Below are positions 28,484 to 34,498 of a stretch of DNA of 64,000 nt, piece after piece. The DNA comes from a virus (taxonomy: Duplodnaviria > Heunggongvirae > Uroviricota > Caudoviricetes): IMG/VR virus record IMGVR_UViG_3300002835_000064, one strand, 5' to 3'. The position numbers and the translations under genes are program-made. The first letter of the stretch is position 1. Each line of letters starts with the position of its first letter. Under the pieces are notes generated by a model, which ran no database searches, was not told the DNA's origin, and saw nothing but the letters and a program-made list of their open reading frames with translations.

Positions 28484-30349
28484 ATGTTATTAAGTGAAGT
28501 TGTAACTAAAATGAGTAAGATCGGCGAAACGCCTGAAGGTGATGGTGTTTATAAGCATGAACCGATTATGCATGATATGGAAGATAATGGTAAGTTTGTA
28601 GCTGGTAGTAATTCCGATTTATCAACTATGGGATGTGAAAAACTAGAAGTTAATTATACAAAAGAAGAACGCGATTTCTTTAAGAATTTAGAGGATAATT
28701 TAAGAAAGCAACGTCAATCATTAGAAGCTGATGGTAAATTCGACGAAGCTAAAAAAATTAATTATAAAATGAAATCACCGCAACAAATAATTAAAGTATT
28801 TCATGCTTATCAATTATTTAAAAATCCATTAACTAGAGAAGAAATGTTAAAAACTCACGGGTTTATGTCTGCAGTAAAAGAACGCGATCCGAGACATTTA
28901 ATGGATAAGAAAGATATTCAATCTATCGTTGATCATAGCGTGACTAGATTAATTAATGCTATGAAAGAACCACCAGTTTTAAAAGGATTCGATAGAGCAG
29001 ATTTTAGTAAGGCGTATACCGATTTTATCCAACCATTTATGGAAACGGGCAAACAAGCAGATAAAAAAAGAAATAATATCATTATTGTCCCATTATCATC
29101 TAGTTCTAAATTAGTTAGTTCGTTCGCCCATACGCTTAGTGAAAGGTTAGGTGGAGCTCAAATTGAATCAGGTGCATTATTAAAAAATTCATGGCCCCGA
29201 TTATCCAAATGGACAACAACTATCAAACATGGGGATTTACTTAGATTACCATCTAATTTCCATATTAAAATGGTTGATGAGATGGATAATCATACTTATT
29301 CGCCAAATATTACTAAATTATTGCGTCAAATTAAAGATTTAATGAGAATTTTAGGTGATGCGGCGAGAAATGTTGCGGATGATGGTGAAGAAGTTGTTAA
29401 TGCGGCGACACCAACCGATAAATTAAAAGAATTGTTAATCGCGTTGCGTCATGCAATAACTGATGAATATATTGATTTAAAAGATCAAATTAATGCGAAG
29501 TTAAATGAATTAGCGACTTATAATAGAACTCATAAGTTAGATAGCGATTTAGCTATTAAACAACATAGACATACACCACAATATACAAAGATTATTAAAG
29601 ATATTGACGTTTTACGTAAAAAACGAGATTCACTACCTAAAGCGGATATTGCTATAACTAGACCATCAGGTAAAGAAACTATCCAATATCAAAAACAAGT
29701 TCATATCGTTAATATTCAAAGATTTGCTAAACATTATGATAGTTTACAACAAGCATATGAATATGCATTAATTAATTGGGAAGATGATCCGGATAATGCA
29801 GCTAAATTAAAAGCAGCTGAGGATTTAGAAGCTCAACTTAAATCATTATCGAATGAATATAATAAATCATTGGAAACATTATACGATGCGGTATTATCAA
29901 ACCCATTTAAAATTCATAATGCGTATGCTAGATCTGGTGGGGATCGTGGTAAAGGATATTATAGATTTCAAATATTACATGAAGATTATGCAGATAAATT
30001 AAACGGAAAAAGTATTATATTAGTTGATGATAATGTTGATACTGGTAAATCTATTATTGATGCAGTTAAATCTATGGCAGCGGTTGGAGTTATACCAGAA
30101 CGTATTATAGCAATGACGCCTCATAAATTTAATACTTCAGCTGAAAATACTAAGAAAACTGCGGCTTTACCTGCAGCTAGACGTGAAGAATTAGCTAATA
30201 TACGTAGTCAATTAGCTTCTAATGCGAGACAGTATAAAAACGAGAAATTACAAGCGAAAAAAACAGCACCTGATTATAATGAAAAGAAAGAAACATTCGG
30301 TCAGCATGTGGCAAGAACTGGTAAATTACCAGGACATGGTCTGTATTAA
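28484..30349 (+). CDS. 621-aa protein with type-I phosphoribosyltransferase (PRPP-binding) motif near the C-terminus and a large helical insertion
   Basis: GKSIILVDDNVDTGKSIIDAV fits the PRTase/Prs PRPP motif (h4-DD-x-x-D/T-T-G-x-S/T); an upstream NNIIIVPLSSSSKLVSS segment is a possible PP-loop region; ~300 aa lie between them. Confidence 0.5.
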   Translation: MLLSEVVTKMSKIGETPEGDGVYKHEPIMHDMEDNGKFVAGSNSDLSTMGCEKLEVNYTKEERDFFKNLEDNLRKQRQSLEADGKFDEAKKINYKMKSPQQIIKVFHAYQLFKNPLTREEMLKTHGFMSAVKERDPRHLMDKKDIQSIVDHSVTRLINAMKEPPVLKGFDRADFSKAYTDFIQPFMETGKQADKKRNNIIIVPLSSSSKLVSSFAHTLSERLGGAQIESGALLKNSWPRLSKWTTTIKHGDLLRLPSNFHIKMVDEMDNHTYSPNITKLLRQIKDLMRILGDAARNVADDGEEVVNAATPTDKLKELLIALRHAITDEYIDLKDQINAKLNELATYNRTHKLDSDLAIKQHRHTPQYTKIIKDIDVLRKKRDSLPKADIAITRPSGKETIQYQKQVHIVNIQRFAKHYDSLQQAYEYALINWEDDPDNAAKLKAAEDLEAQLKSLSNEYNKSLETLYDAVLSNPFKIHNAYARSGGDRGKGYYRFQILHEDYADKLNGKSIILVDDNVDTGKSIIDAVKSMAAVGVIPERIIAMTPHKFNTSAENTKKTAALPAARREELANIRSQLASNARQYKNEKLQAKKTAPDYNEKKETFGQHVARTGKLPGHGLY

Positions 30350-30368
30350 TAAAAAATAGTTGATTTTT

Positions 30369-30410
30369 AAGTTAAGAAGTGTTATACTTTAATACTTCTT
30401 AACTTTATTG
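30369..30410 (+). terminator. hairpin terminator after the PRTase-motif gene
   Basis: aagttaagaagt - 13 nt loop - acttcttaactt followed by T-rich sequence. Confidence 0.4.
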
Positions 30411-30421
30411 TTTTATAAATT

Positions 30422-30739
30422 ATGATACTTAACAATTATAAGTATTTTATAGCGCCGATCGAATCAATCGATTTAACATATCCCGAAGCTCTTATGTATT
30501 GCGCCTTTCTTAATATAGATGATTATTTTGATTGGTATATTCCGTCATTAAAAGAATGGCAGTTTATTTTACAAGAAAATAAAAATATATTATCGCAAGA
30601 TAGTTCATATTGGTCCGGATCTAATGCAGTTAGTCAAAAACGAATTTGGACAATATCTGAAAATTCTAAAAATATTAAAGTTAGACATATATTAGATAAA
30701 TGCAAAGTAAGAGCAATTCGGAAAGAATTATTATCTTGA
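30422..30739 (+). CDS. hypothetical protein (105 aa)
   Basis: ORF only. Confidence 0.4.
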   Translation: MILNNYKYFIAPIESIDLTYPEALMYCAFLNIDDYFDWYIPSLKEWQFILQENKNILSQDSSYWSGSNAVSQKRIWTISENSKNIKVRHILDKCKVRAIRKELLS

Positions 30740-30787
30740 TTTTATTATACTAATATAGTATACTATATCTTTTAACGAGAATATATT

Positions 30788-31228
30788 ATGGCAACTGAAC
30801 GATTAGATATATTTGAAGTTCTTCGAAATATTAATAAAAAGAATTATAATTACGTCCAAGATTTGGAAGATGACCAGAGAAAACAATTTTCTCCGTTCGT
30901 CGTAAATCAATGGTTGTGTTGTTCAAATAGCCCATTACAAATAGTATTAATGGACAAGTTAGTAAATCGACGATTCTTTAAATTATCAAGACATCCAAAT
31001 TTAATTTATAAATTATTCTGTATTACGGCAGTTGATAAAAATGCTAGATATAATTGGCTATTTAAAAAAGCCGAGAAAAGTGATGCGATAGATATTATTG
31101 CAAAATATCTAAATTGTTCTAGACGCGACGCTAGTAGATATAAAGATTCTTTTAGTCAGGATGATATAAAAGAAATGATTAAGATATTAGGATATCAACC
31201 ATCTGAAATTAAGAAATTAAAGGTTTAA
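30788..31228 (+). CDS. hypothetical protein (146 aa), possibly DNA-binding
   Basis: ORF only; basic C-terminal half. Confidence 0.4.
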   Translation: MATERLDIFEVLRNINKKNYNYVQDLEDDQRKQFSPFVVNQWLCCSNSPLQIVLMDKLVNRRFFKLSRHPNLIYKLFCITAVDKNARYNWLFKKAEKSDAIDIIAKYLNCSRRDASRYKDSFSQDDIKEMIKILGYQPSEIKKLKV

Positions 31229-31230
31229 AA

Positions 31231-31422
31231 ATGAAAACATATTTTAAAATATTAGGTATTACGTTATTATTTAGTTTGCAGTATATTTTTGTATTGCCGT
31301 ATTATTTTTCATCTGATAATTGGTGGGAATTTTTATTAGGTTGGTTTATTTTATTAGTTATAGACCCAATTATTATTTGGAAATTAACGGAAAATTATCG
31401 GATTAAAAAGGAGGTTGAGTGA
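31231..31422 (+). CDS. small membrane protein (63 aa, two predicted TM helices)
   Basis: Hydrophobic ILGITLLFSLQYIFVLPYYF and LLGWFILLVIDPIIIW segments. Confidence 0.45.
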   Translation: MKTYFKILGITLLFSLQYIFVLPYYFSSDNWWEFLLGWFILLVIDPIIIWKLTENYRIKKEVE

Positions 31423-31562
31423 TTTATGTCGTTAGTTTATTGATTGCATTGGGTATCGCCTCGTTTATTGTTGTAGTTATTGCGGTTAGTATATTAACTT
31501 GTTTTGCATTTATTATATTCATTTGCAAATTGTTTAATATGGTAATTGATTGGGATGAGTAG
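31419..31562 (+). CDS. 47-aa hydrophobic membrane peptide (GTG start, AAGGAGG RBS 4 nt upstream); not in the ORF track
   Basis: Translation MIYVVSLLIALGIASFIVVVIAVSILTCFAFIIFICKLFNMVIDWDE; overlaps the upstream stop (GTGA); immediately precedes the SPFH gene. Confidence 0.3.
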   Translation: MIYVVSLLIALGIASFIVVVIAVSILTCFAFIIFICKLFNMVIDWDE

Positions 31563-31579
31563 TTTTAATTAAAATTATA

Positions 31580-32446
31580 TTGGAAAAATATTTTATGAAA
31601 AAGGTATTATTAGTATCGGCTATTTTATTAGTTTTAACTGGGTGTTCGAATGTTAATGTCGGGGAAGTCGGCATTAAAGTTCATTTATTGGGTGGTGATA
31701 AAGGTGTTGATTCGGAACAATTAGGACCCGGTAGATATTGGATTGGTGTGAATGAACAATTATATACTTTCCCAACCTTTATGCAGAATTATACCTGGAC
31801 TAAATCTAGAAGTGAAGGACGAGATGAAGATGAATCAATTACATTTCAGACAAAAGAAGGTTTATCAGTAAATGCGGATATTGGTATTACTTATACCTTA
31901 CAACCTGATAAAATTCCAGTTCTATTTCAAAAATATCGTAAAGGTATTGATGAAATTACGCATATCTACTTACGTAATTTAGTTCGTGATGCTATTAATA
32001 CGGAATCATCAACTAAACCAATTGAATCAGTTTACGGCGAAGGTAAAGCAGAATTAATTAAAGCTGCCGAAGGTCGTGTTCGAGTTGAGATTGAACCCTA
32101 CGGTATTCATTTAGATCATTTATCTTGGGTTGGTAATATTAGATTGCCAGAAACAGTTACTGATGCAATTGATGCGAAAATTTCAGCATCACAAATTGCA
32201 ATAACAAGACAAAATGAAATCGAAACTGCTAAAGCCGAAGCTCAAAAAGCAATTGCCGTTGCAGAAGGCGAAGCTAATGCTAGATTATTAGTTGCTGAAG
32301 CTGAAGCAAAAGCTATTCGATTAAAAGGTGAAGCGGTTCGTAATAATCCAGGTGTTGCAGAATTAAATGCTATCGAAAAATGGAATGGTGTTTTGCCGGT
32401 AACTATGTTACCAAATTCAACTTTACCATTGATTGGCGTTAAGTAA
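31580..32446 (+). CDS. SPFH/band-7 (HflC/prohibitin-like) lipoprotein
   Basis: Signal peptide plus lipobox LLVLTGCS; SPFH-like core followed by an Ala/Glu-rich coiled-coil (AKAEAQKAIAVAEGEANARLLVAEAEAKAIRLKGEA) as in HflK/C and prohibitins. Confidence 0.7.
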   Translation: MEKYFMKKVLLVSAILLVLTGCSNVNVGEVGIKVHLLGGDKGVDSEQLGPGRYWIGVNEQLYTFPTFMQNYTWTKSRSEGRDEDESITFQTKEGLSVNADIGITYTLQPDKIPVLFQKYRKGIDEITHIYLRNLVRDAINTESSTKPIESVYGEGKAELIKAAEGRVRVEIEPYGIHLDHLSWVGNIRLPETVTDAIDAKISASQIAITRQNEIETAKAEAQKAIAVAEGEANARLLVAEAEAKAIRLKGEAVRNNPGVAELNAIEKWNGVLPVTMLPNSTLPLIGVK

Positions 32447-32458
32447 TATTAAATTAGT

Positions 32459-32508
32459 AGTACCAAAGTATTGATTTTTTGATACTTTGGTACTATAATA
32501 TTATTTTT
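32459..32508 (+). terminator. rho-independent terminator after the SPFH gene
   Basis: agtaccaaagtat - 10 nt loop - atactttggtact, then a T-rich tail. Confidence 0.5.
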
Positions 32509-32518
32509 AGGGGGAATT

Positions 32519-32683
32519 ATGACGTATTATGTTTTAGCTACAATTATTCATGGGTTTTTAACTATATCTGAACCGATGACTTTTAGTGAGTGTATGCATA
32601 AAAAAATGATTTTTTTAGATCAAGAACATTCATTACCGATAAGCGAACAAATGCATAGATCAGTGGAATGCCGTAAACTATGA
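32519..32683 (+). CDS. small protein (54 aa), AGGGGG RBS, translationally coupled (ATGA) to ORF 32680; not in the ORF track
   Basis: Translation MTYYVLATIIHGFLTISEPMTFSECMHKKMIFLDQEHSLPISEQMHRSVECRKL. Confidence 0.35.
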   Translation: MTYYVLATIIHGFLTISEPMTFSECMHKKMIFLDQEHSLPISEQMHRSVECRKL

Positions 32684-33832: not shown

Positions 33833-34498
33833 TTGAAAATTGTTGTTTTAACTGGAGCTGGTATTAGTGCGGAATCTGGAATTTCTACATTTCGTGATTC
33901 GAATGGATTATGGGAAAATCATAATATTGAAGAAATCGCAACTCCTTGGGGTTGGGAAATGAATCCAGATTTAGTCTTAGAGTTTTATAATCAAAGACGA
34001 AGACAATTACATGAAGTAACTCCTAATTTAGCGCATTATGCATTAGCAGAATTAGAAAAACATCATGATGTCGTTGTTATAACTCAGAATGTTGATGATT
34101 TGCATGAACGTGCTGGTTCGACTAATATTATTCATTTGCACGGCGAATTATTAAAAGCTAGAGATGAAGTAACTGATGATGTTTATGATAATCCGGGTGA
34201 TATTAATTTAGGTGATTTTAGTCCGAATGGTCATCAATTAAGACCCCATATCGTTTGGTTTTATGAGCCGGTTCCGTTATTAGATAAAGCAGTTGACGAA
34301 GTTCGTAATGCAGATCATTTAGTTGTTATTGGAACTAGTTTGGTTGTTTACCCGGCGGCGAGTCTTTTATTTTTTACACCTCCCGATTGTAAGATTACTA
34401 TTATTGATAAATCAATACCTGAAACAGCAATTAAAGTTGATTCATTAGAAGGATCGGCTTGCGAAAAAGTACCTCAGTTTGTAAATAGTATTATCTAA
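33833..34498 (+). CDS. Sir2-family (sirtuin) NAD-dependent enzyme without a zinc-ribbon module
   Basis: GAGISAESGISTFRDSNGLW (Rossmann/NAD motif), ITQNVDDLHERAGS, and catalytic IIHLHGEL; no Cys pairs where sirtuins carry C-x2-C...C-x2-C. Confidence 0.8.
   Translation: MKIVVLTGAGISAESGISTFRDSNGLWENHNIEEIATPWGWEMNPDLVLEFYNQRRRQLHEVTPNLAHYALAELEKHHDVVVITQNVDDLHERAGSTNIIHLHGELLKARDEVTDDVYDNPGDINLGDFSPNGHQLRPHIVWFYEPVPLLDKAVDEVRNADHLVVIGTSLVVYPAASLLFFTPPDCKITIIDKSIPETAIKVDSLEGSACEKVPQFVNSII

Follow-up and report, generated by a model that had tools for sequence, protein, structure and literature searches.

The DNA analyzed here, a 64,000-nucleotide stretch from a tailed phage of the Caudoviricetes (IMG/VR virus record IMGVR_UViG_3300002835_000064; hereafter the window), carries a compact cassette of three plus-strand open reading frames (ORFs) that encode proteins of 63, 47 and 283 residues. 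An original prediction, made from the letters of this DNA, had proposed these ORFs together with a GTG start and an AAGGAGG ribosome-binding site for the second, and all of these elements are present where it placed them. On the basis of sequence and structural modeling, the largest product is a genuine member of the SPFH/Band_7 family that has a long coiled coil and a lipoprotein signal peptide. Sequence comparison further identifies the 63-residue protein as a real, conserved partner that is nearly always encoded directly 5′ of the SPFH gene, and this conserved partner is the main new result of our analysis. The arrangement is not a product of chance and is conserved in many unrelated phages.

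The SPFH lipoprotein and its two-helix partner

With respect to the large protein, the SPFH identity proposed originally was confirmed by a Pfam search, in which Band_7 (PF01145) scored 93.1 bits (gathering score 23.6; E 2.8e-26) and residues 20-216 aligned with positions 3-176 of the 176-position profile. The protein also belongs to phrog_200, a PHROGs family annotated 'lipoprotein' (E 5.4e-79); NCBIfam returned no equivalog for it. Searched by sequence, the PDB offered nothing beyond weak matches to the coiled coil of prohibitin-2, and a fold search was needed. In the AlphaFold2 model, a monomer built on 41 homologues with a mean predicted local distance difference test score of 75.7, a beta-rich N-domain (strands 16-102) is followed by an alpha/beta region (104-180) and by a predicted 65-residue helix (186-250) over an Ala/Glu-rich stretch, in agreement with the HflK/C-like coiled coil of the original prediction. 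Full-length Foldseek matches in the PDB at probability 1.00 comprised HflK/C (7vhq, 7wi3, 9cz2), prohibitin (8rrh, 9o9z), erlin and stomatin. QmcA–YbbJ (8z5g), flotillin and the major vault protein were further matches at this probability, and the full-length matches are all cage-forming assemblies.

At the N-terminus, the lipobox noted originally as LTGCS reads L-T-G-C with Cys17 as the predicted lipid-carrying residue. Pfam LPAM_1 scores 17.2 bits, just under its cut-off of 20, and the lipobox assignment therefore rests on the sequence pattern together with its conservation, as it is kept in nearly all viral homologues. A tether of about 5 residues connects this Cys to the first SPFH strand. 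The ORF listing opens the SPFH frame at TTG 31580; ATG 31595, which gives the N-terminus MKKVLLVSAILLVLTGC, is the plausible start because relatives begin at the equivalent Met, and a 32-nucleotide AT-rich spacer separates it from the 47-residue ORF. Toward the C-terminus, a LNAIEKWNGxLP motif is nearly invariant in the SPFH clade. None of the three cassette proteins matched a PADLOC-DB 2.0 defense model at E up to 0.01.

The 63-residue protein contains two hydrophobic segments and matches phrog_1130 ('membrane protein') at E 5.5e-4. A set of 22 diverse partners aligns readily, and 19 of them match phrog_1130 (best E 2.6e-29). Three positions of this alignment are invariant, a Pro, a Ser and a Gly that correspond to P23, S27 and G37 in the window protein, and the same three are invariant in a second alignment built from database hits. 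Pfam returned no family for the 63- or the 47-residue protein at E up to 0.01; there is no Pfam model for the partner family, and the database names of partners are all 'hypothetical'. Three candidate identities for the partner, namely a holin, a homologue of T4 Imm and a homologue of NfeD, were rejected on profile searches.

The pairing of the two genes, which the original prediction had seen at this one locus, extends to most of the phage loci compared. Every one of the first loci inspected, which were drawn from N4-like, P1-like, P2-like, Stx, rV5-like and Myosmarvirus phages as well as high-GC (guanine-cytosine) prophages, contains a two-helix ORF of 55-90 residues directly 5′ of the SPFH gene, usually with an overlap of 1-20 nucleotides. 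With a hidden Markov model of the partner, a family member was found directly 5′ and on the same strand at 105 of 115 viral or phage loci. When SPFH proteins were clustered at 80% identity, the partner preceded the SPFH gene in 29 of 36 clusters, again mostly with a 1-20-nucleotide overlap. The seven clusters lacking it are more distant and have in the 5′ position either no small membrane protein (FelixO1-like) or one of a different kind (phiCbK-like, Bruynoghevirus). When 1.84 billion representative proteins were searched with a profile of the partner, 1,014 homologues emerged, almost all of 56-97 residues, and the link also holds in reverse: all five homologues sampled across the ranking lie directly 5′ of a Band_7 gene of 277-302 residues. 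The partner is often unannotated, for example in RefSeq P1-like plasmids (L189, 4001-4217) and in a GenBank Stx2a phage record (L191, 3816-4004), where the ORFs are conserved and overlap the SPFH start.

The distribution of charged residues supports a predicted topology for the partner in which both termini are cytoplasmic (an N-in/C-in hairpin). Specifically, the N-terminus averages 1.36 K/R and 0.09 D/E per sequence, the loop 0.62 K/R and 1.32 D/E, and the C-terminus 2.6 K/R and 1.13 D/E. Because these charges indicate an N-in/C-in arrangement, the conserved Pro/Ser motif would be located where helix 1 ends on the periplasmic side, which is also the side of the exported lipoprotein.

The 47-residue peptide stands somewhat apart from this pair. 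Its ORF is intact in the two closest relatives of the window (L192 and L193), where the peptide is 98% and 94% identical and the 63-residue partner 95% and 81%. Synonymous changes number 7-8 and non-synonymous changes 3-4, which on these small counts gives a ratio of non-synonymous to synonymous rates (pN/pS) of 0.09-0.14, and the two other frames of the region are full of stops. On this evidence, the peptide is under purifying selection in close relatives. A sister lineage (L007/L008 and L200-L204) has colinear hydrophobic ORFs of 43-44 residues in the equivalent slot; those in L200-L204 are gene-called and show ATGA overlaps with both neighbors. A colinear alignment of six variants shows four positions without any change. 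Homology among them was not established by pairwise BLASTP (E 0.005-0.013), and the colinear alignment alone supports it. Elsewhere the slot is occupied differently: in other close relatives it holds no ORF, and the partner, which is extended by a charged stretch of about 15 residues, directly adjoins the SPFH gene, while rV5-like phages carry an unrelated soluble 54-residue ORF there.

These data bear directly on an alternative in which the 47-residue ORF is untranslated, 31423-31594 is an AT-rich spacer or an SPFH promoter, and the cassette has two genes. In its favor, the ORF goes uncalled by gene callers in both of the closest relatives, there is a promoter-like site at 31546-31575, many relatives have no ORF in the slot, and the BLASTP values between variants are weak. 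This alternative is nonetheless unlikely given the strong AAGGAGG site and GTGA overlap, the substitution pattern and stop-filled alternative frames, the higher conservation of the peptide than of its partner, and the called, doubly overlapping ORFs of the sister lineage. The peptide is probably real but not core, because it is conserved in relatives and yet its slot is empty or unrelated elsewhere. It is thus probably a lineage-specific accessory membrane peptide rather than a core partner, which qualifies the original prediction.

Transcription signals, genomic surroundings and distribution

In terms of expression, the 63-residue ORF begins 2 nucleotides past the stop of a gp62-like clamp-loader gene (30788-31228), and there is no promoter-like gap between 31228 and 31231. 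A promoter-like site 5′ of the clamp-loader gene is an exact match to TTGATT-N17-TATAMT. The window contains four exact matches, each within or beside an inter-ORF gap; written as TTGATTTT-N15-TATAMT, they start at 1787, 30360, 30736 and 32471. When one mismatch was allowed, 9 sites were found against 5.7 expected in the window, which is not a significant enrichment, and the promoter assignments are therefore tentative. Within this limit, the cassette transcript probably starts at the site upstream of the clamp-loader gene, and the three genes probably constitute one envelope module co-transcribed with replication genes. The closed unit described originally keeps its own terminator but has no separate promoter. 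The terminator-like hairpin folds at -26.4 kcal/mol (z = -6.5), and 0 of 200 shuffled sequences folded equally well. A further terminator-like site at 31653-31677, inside the SPFH gene, was dismissed as chance. Two of the exact promoter-like sites on the plus strand (in the regions 30360-30405 and 32457-32499) overlap long hairpins of 16 and 18 pairs, and for this reason a terminator and the next promoter seem to be fused into one element.

Table 1. Coordinates of the cassette genes, their parts and the flanking signals in the window
Feature	Position	Strand	Remarks
Promoter-like site TTGATTTT-N15-TATACT	30736-30764	+	5′ of gp62-like clamp-loader gene; exact match to TTGATT-N17-TATAMT
63-residue two-helix protein, predicted inner-membrane hairpin	31231-31422	+	phrog_1130 family; Pro23, Ser27, Gly37 invariant
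AAGGAGG ribosome-binding site of the 47-residue ORF	31408-31414	+	4 nucleotides before the GTG start; read from sequence
47-residue mini-protein, almost entirely hydrophobic	31419-31562	+	GTG start overlaps TGA stop of the partner (GTGA)
283-residue SPFH/Band_7 lipoprotein (predicted)	31595-32446	+	Pfam Band_7, phrog_200, AlphaFold2, Foldseek
Predicted signal peptide with lipobox LTGC	31595-31645	+	Cys17 at 31643-31645
SPFH domain	about 31652-32242	+	
Predicted long coiled-coil helix	about 32150-32344	+	
C-terminal motif LNAIEKWNGxLP	about 32363-32398	+	conserved alignment columns
Intrinsic-terminator-like hairpin	32457-32496	+	18-pair stem, then T-rich tail AATATTATTTTTA
Promoter-like site for next genes	32471-32499	+	overlaps the 32457-32496 hairpin

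The phage setting assumed by the original prediction is clear from the rest of the window, which encodes topoisomerase II subunits, the gp62-like clamp loader, baseplate wedge and hub proteins and a major capsid protein, as in a large T4-like myovirus. When capsids are compared, the nearest isolates (54-56%) are jumbo phages that infect Xanthomonas and Stenotrophomonas, with Xanthomonas phage XacN1 at the top (56%). No close isolate was found, as a megablast search with the 3-kb region returned nothing from 50,697 phage records; metagenomic relatives reach 372 kb. The GC content of the window is 33%.

Several neighbors on the plus strand are also worth recording. A 621-residue protein (28484-30349) resembles phosphoribosyltransferases (PRTases) in its C-terminal part, with a below-cut-off match to Pfam Pribosyltran (E 6.7e-5) and a match to PADLOC PRTase_III-A, a retron-associated effector type (E 2e-4). 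It is kept in L192/L193 and lies directly 5′ of the module in L007/L008. Next to it, a 105-residue protein (30422-30739) with its own promoter-like site and hairpin upstream weakly matches an Lcl_C-terminal domain (E 2.2e-5, below cut-off). On the other side of the cassette, a 54-residue ORF with a hydrophobic N-terminus and a strong GGGGG ribosome-binding site (32519-32683) directly follows the terminator/promoter element; it has no family match and is conserved and gene-called in L192/L193. A phage Sir2-family protein (33833-34498; PF02146 E 1.3e-40; phrog_2162) lies 1.4 kb 3′ of the module and is likewise conserved in these two relatives.

Homologues of the SPFH protein are widespread, with tblastn detecting one in 596 of the 50,697 phage records. 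The carriers include N4-like Schitoviridae (up to 52% identical), P1-like, Stx-converting, rV5-like, FelixO1-like, Bruynoghevirus, phiCbK-like, crAss-like and Lak phages and, more distantly, Staphylococcus K-like phages and haloviruses, so that both virulent and temperate phages are represented. Among 5,426 complete Escherichia coli genomes, 460 (about 8%) contain a relative of the E. coli version that is recognizable at the DNA level, in P1-like plasmids or in chromosomal prophages (P2-like, Stx). The gene is annotated variously as 'prohibitin family protein', 'band 7 lipoprotein', 'serine protease' or 'transposase fusion protein'. In the searchable literature, we found no work on the function of phage SPFH proteins or their partner and no description of the module of partner and SPFH gene, and a 2026 paper on Pseudomonas aeruginosa SPFH proteins makes no mention of phages or lipoproteins.

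The genes that surround the module vary. Within the phage lineage of the window, the cassette moves as a unit and is found after clamp-loader genes, a 600-residue PRTase-like gene or a T4 dsbA-like gene. A P2-like phage has it in the early operon between cox and a replication gene, and a Stx2a phage between cI and xis/int; at other loci its neighbors are genes for ERF, primase, exonuclease, MazG or RNA ligase. An N4-like E. coli phage has the module between terminators, adjoining a gene annotated superinfection exclusion, and in the Vi01-like phage PhiSH19 (PMC3220722) it likewise adjoins a gene with this label. P1-like elements (L003, L189, H88-H94) carry the module between trnT and trnI/ban, exactly where canonical P1 has tciA-tciB-tciC, which makes the SPFH module and tciABC alternative cargo of one P1 slot. 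Judged by gene order, the module always sits in early or lytic positions, with early, replication or recombination genes around it, and not in lysogen-expressed ones.

Distant relatives of the SPFH protein also occur on bacterial contigs (L030-L107; 23-41% identical). These cellular proteins likewise carry the C-terminal EKWNG motif, and they include lipoproteins as well as forms with an N-terminal transmembrane helix. Many are preceded by an unrelated small ORF with two or three helices (e.g. in Gastranaerophilales and Steroidobacteraceae), and pairing with a small membrane protein may for this reason be general for the SPFH clade.

A proposed role at the inner membrane

The residue that follows the lipid-carrying Cys bears on the location of the SPFH protein. 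Under the enterobacterial +2 rule, an Asp in this position keeps a lipoprotein in the inner membrane. Asp is found in the E. coli P1-like, P2-like and Stx group, in Klebsiella P18-100 and in Serratia Spe5P4; Raoultella phage Ro1 has Glu, the N4-like E. coli phage Tyr-Asp and Salmonella phage PMBT37 Asn, and the non-enterobacterial versions and the window protein have Ser. The acidic +2 residues of the enterobacterial proteins suggest, for the phages concerned, attachment to the periplasmic face of the inner membrane.

Taken together, our observations are best explained by a periplasmic SPFH ring that sits on the inner membrane around the hairpin partner and shields the envelope of the infected cell, a reading to which we give a probability of roughly 0.5. 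The SPFH protein would be exported and lipidated and would then lie flat on the membrane facing the periplasm. Through its long helix it could oligomerize into a ring or cage, by analogy with HflK/C, prohibitin, stomatin and QmcA. The hairpin partner, made in step with the SPFH protein, would reside in the inner membrane with its Pro/Ser loop toward the periplasm, as a membrane-embedded subunit or client of the ring, and in the phage lineage of the window a second peptide of about 45 residues may join the complex. In what is the weakest step of this proposal, the ring would fence off or stiffen a patch of the inner membrane early in infection. The envelope as such, rather than one host enzyme, would thereby be protected from secondary attack in the form of DNA entry by a superinfecting phage, colicin-like agents or premature permeabilization. 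The early timing of the module, its occurrence in virulent and temperate phages, and neighbors or slot-mates annotated with exclusion or colicin/tellurite functions lend weak support to such a protective or insulating role.

A number of points weigh against the envelope-shield proposal. The labels 'superinfection exclusion' and 'tci' of neighboring genes are depositors' annotations, and some SPFH lipoproteins (those of FelixO1-like, Bruynoghevirus and phiCbK-like phages) come without the partner family. No fusion of partner and SPFH protein was seen among the best 150 partner homologues, none of which exceeds 154 residues. With respect to location, an acidic +2 residue is present in only 2-3 independent enterobacterial lineages. 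The window protein, encoded in DNA of 33% GC, has Ser in this position and may be sorted to the outer membrane; this would separate the lipoprotein from its inner-membrane partner. Finally, two genome papers describe the role of the phage SPFH protein as unclear (PMC13239085, PMC8540360), a verdict that is repeated in papers up to 2026. In the one functional paper that we found, a SPFH/HflK/C-like protein of a Pasteurella multocida prophage (PM0222, Pmorf0222) is present in outer-membrane vesicles and contributes to virulence (PMC9872710).

One function that could be proposed instead is mimicry of HflK/C. A phage ring would trap or modulate host FtsH from the periplasm and so stabilize FtsH substrates of phage or host origin, while the small proteins would serve as adaptors or pseudo-substrates. 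The bulk of HflK/C is indeed periplasmic, HflK/C–FtsH structures are among the best fold matches, and the lambdoid Stx phage has the module in its leftward early region, which in lambda is the location of the FtsH inhibitor cIII. However, the likeness to HflK/C in the original prediction holds at the level of the fold and no further: the NCBIfam models score far below their cut-offs (TIGR01933 hflK, 19.7 bits against 159.4; TIGR01932 hflC, 13.9 against 134.4), and there is one SPFH gene with a predicted lipid anchor in place of a K/C pair with transmembrane helices. Since prohibitin, erlin and stomatin match equally well, the fold carries no specificity for FtsH. The module is, moreover, common in strictly virulent phages (PMC8540360), for which we know of no FtsH-dependent step. 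The original prediction had named FtsH modulation, membrane integrity and superinfection exclusion as possible functions; nothing in the analysis favors FtsH in particular, and we consider this explanation improbable.

The small size and two-helix layout of the partner, which are those of class II holins, could instead point to lysis timing, with the partner as a holin- or pinholin-like permeabilizer and the SPFH lipoprotein as the factor that restrains or times it; SPFH cages are known to sequester membrane proteins. Weak Phage_holin_2 matches did appear in 2 of the 22 partners, yet the best (E 0.004) reaches 14.9 bits against a Pfam threshold of 32. No endolysin, spanin or other lysis gene is present among the window neighbors between 28484 and 34498, and in other phages the module sits with replication and recombination genes, a Hydrolase_2-domain neighbor 1.3 kb away in L210 being the only such case seen. 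A part in lysis timing is thus very unlikely. We regard as more improbable still a surface function, in which the lipoprotein would reach the outer membrane and vesicles and alter the host surface through lysogenic conversion or immune stimulation, as for Pmorf0222. Ser at +2 would direct the window protein outward under the enterobacterial rule, and deletion of the SPFH/HflK/C-like PM0222 lowers virulence (PMC9872710). On the other hand, the window phage is a large virulent-type myovirus whose module is embedded in replication genes, temperate phages keep the module in lytic early operons and not in lysogen-expressed positions, and a translationally coupled alpha-helical partner in the inner membrane fits an outer-membrane role poorly. 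None of these three alternatives has specific support.

The envelope-shield proposal can also be stated more broadly. Many phage families may carry a minimal 'split' SPFH system, composed of a hairpin of about 60 residues, with or without a peptide of about 45, and a lipid-anchored SPFH protein as separate polypeptides, whose periplasmic cage on the inner membrane would act as a general shield against superinfection, membrane-attacking host defenses and colicins. In this general form the idea is doubtful. If true, phage SPFH proteins, and with them a family of >1000 unannotated mini-proteins, would gain their first defined function.

Comparison with known systems

The gene family is already in databases and annotated in many genomes, and the window instance is therefore not unusual as a gene. 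What changes is its context: the SPFH lipoprotein gene almost never occurs by itself, being coupled to that of a tiny two-helix protein which annotations often omit. A vague annotation thereby becomes a defined unit of two or three genes that is tractable in E. coli phages such as P88, RCS47 and N4-like phages. The module can serve as a small and simple model of the way in which SPFH cages engage clients in the membrane, and it addresses the modest question of why phages carry SPFH proteins.

The nearest counterparts are phages with both phrog_200 and phrog_1130 genes, which include the E. coli phages P88, phiP27 and RCS47, Stx2a phages, the N4-like vB_Eco_SPSP and the rV5-like Raoultella phage Ro1. 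Their SPFH genes, annotated as SPFH or 'putative serine protease', are direct homologues whose proteins are 38-52% identical to the window protein over the full length, and these loci share with the window the lipobox, the C-terminal EKWNGxLP and the upstream two-helix partner. Relative to these phages, the window has the additional 47-residue peptide between the two genes and Ser, not Asp, after the lipid-carrying Cys.

Outside the SPFH family, T4 Imm and Sp offer a functional analogy. These superinfection exclusion proteins are small early envelope proteins from the replication-gene neighborhood that protect the envelope of the infected cell. The likeness does not extend to homology, as T4 has no SPFH component and Imm_superinfect matched none of the 22 partners at E up to 0.1. 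P1 TciA/TciB/TciC occupy the same trnT-trnI/ban slot as the SPFH module, but the proteins are unrelated, and the tci function (tellurite/colicin resistance or inhibition of cell division) is itself an annotation.

Among characterized SPFH proteins, prohibitin PHB1/PHB2 shows the best sequence similarity to a solved structure, in the coiled coil and the 'GEAxxxNPG' region (PDB 6iqe, 8rrh), and NCBI labels relatives of the window protein 'prohibitin family protein'. The match is only at E 1.6e-3 to 4e-3, however, and prohibitins are hetero-oligomers of eukaryotic mitochondria that are held by transmembrane anchors. The SPFH–NfeD operons (QmcA–YbbJ, PDB 8z5g; Pyrococcus PH1511/PH1510) likewise combine an SPFH gene with a co-oriented gene for a small membrane protein, and the QmcA fold matches. 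The parallel to NfeD drawn originally is no more than an analogy: the 63-residue partner has no NfeD OB-fold, protease domain or Pfam match, its gene comes first, and no NfeD match was found among the 22 partner homologues at E up to 0.1. In addition, the SPFH domain of QmcA is cytoplasmic, whereas the window protein is predicted to be exported.

E. coli HflK/HflC–FtsH shares the SPFH fold and long helix with the window protein and also has its bulk in the periplasm on the inner membrane, although at 17-21% identity the likeness is one of fold. HflK and HflC form a hetero-pair with transmembrane anchors, whereas the window has one SPFH gene, a predicted lipid anchor and a transmembrane part supplied by a separate tiny protein. 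Judged from sequence, the features that appear new relative to the characterized SPFH systems, HflK/C and SPFH–NfeD, are the predicted lipid anchor, the near-obligate tiny hairpin that is not an NfeD protein, and the third mini-peptide.

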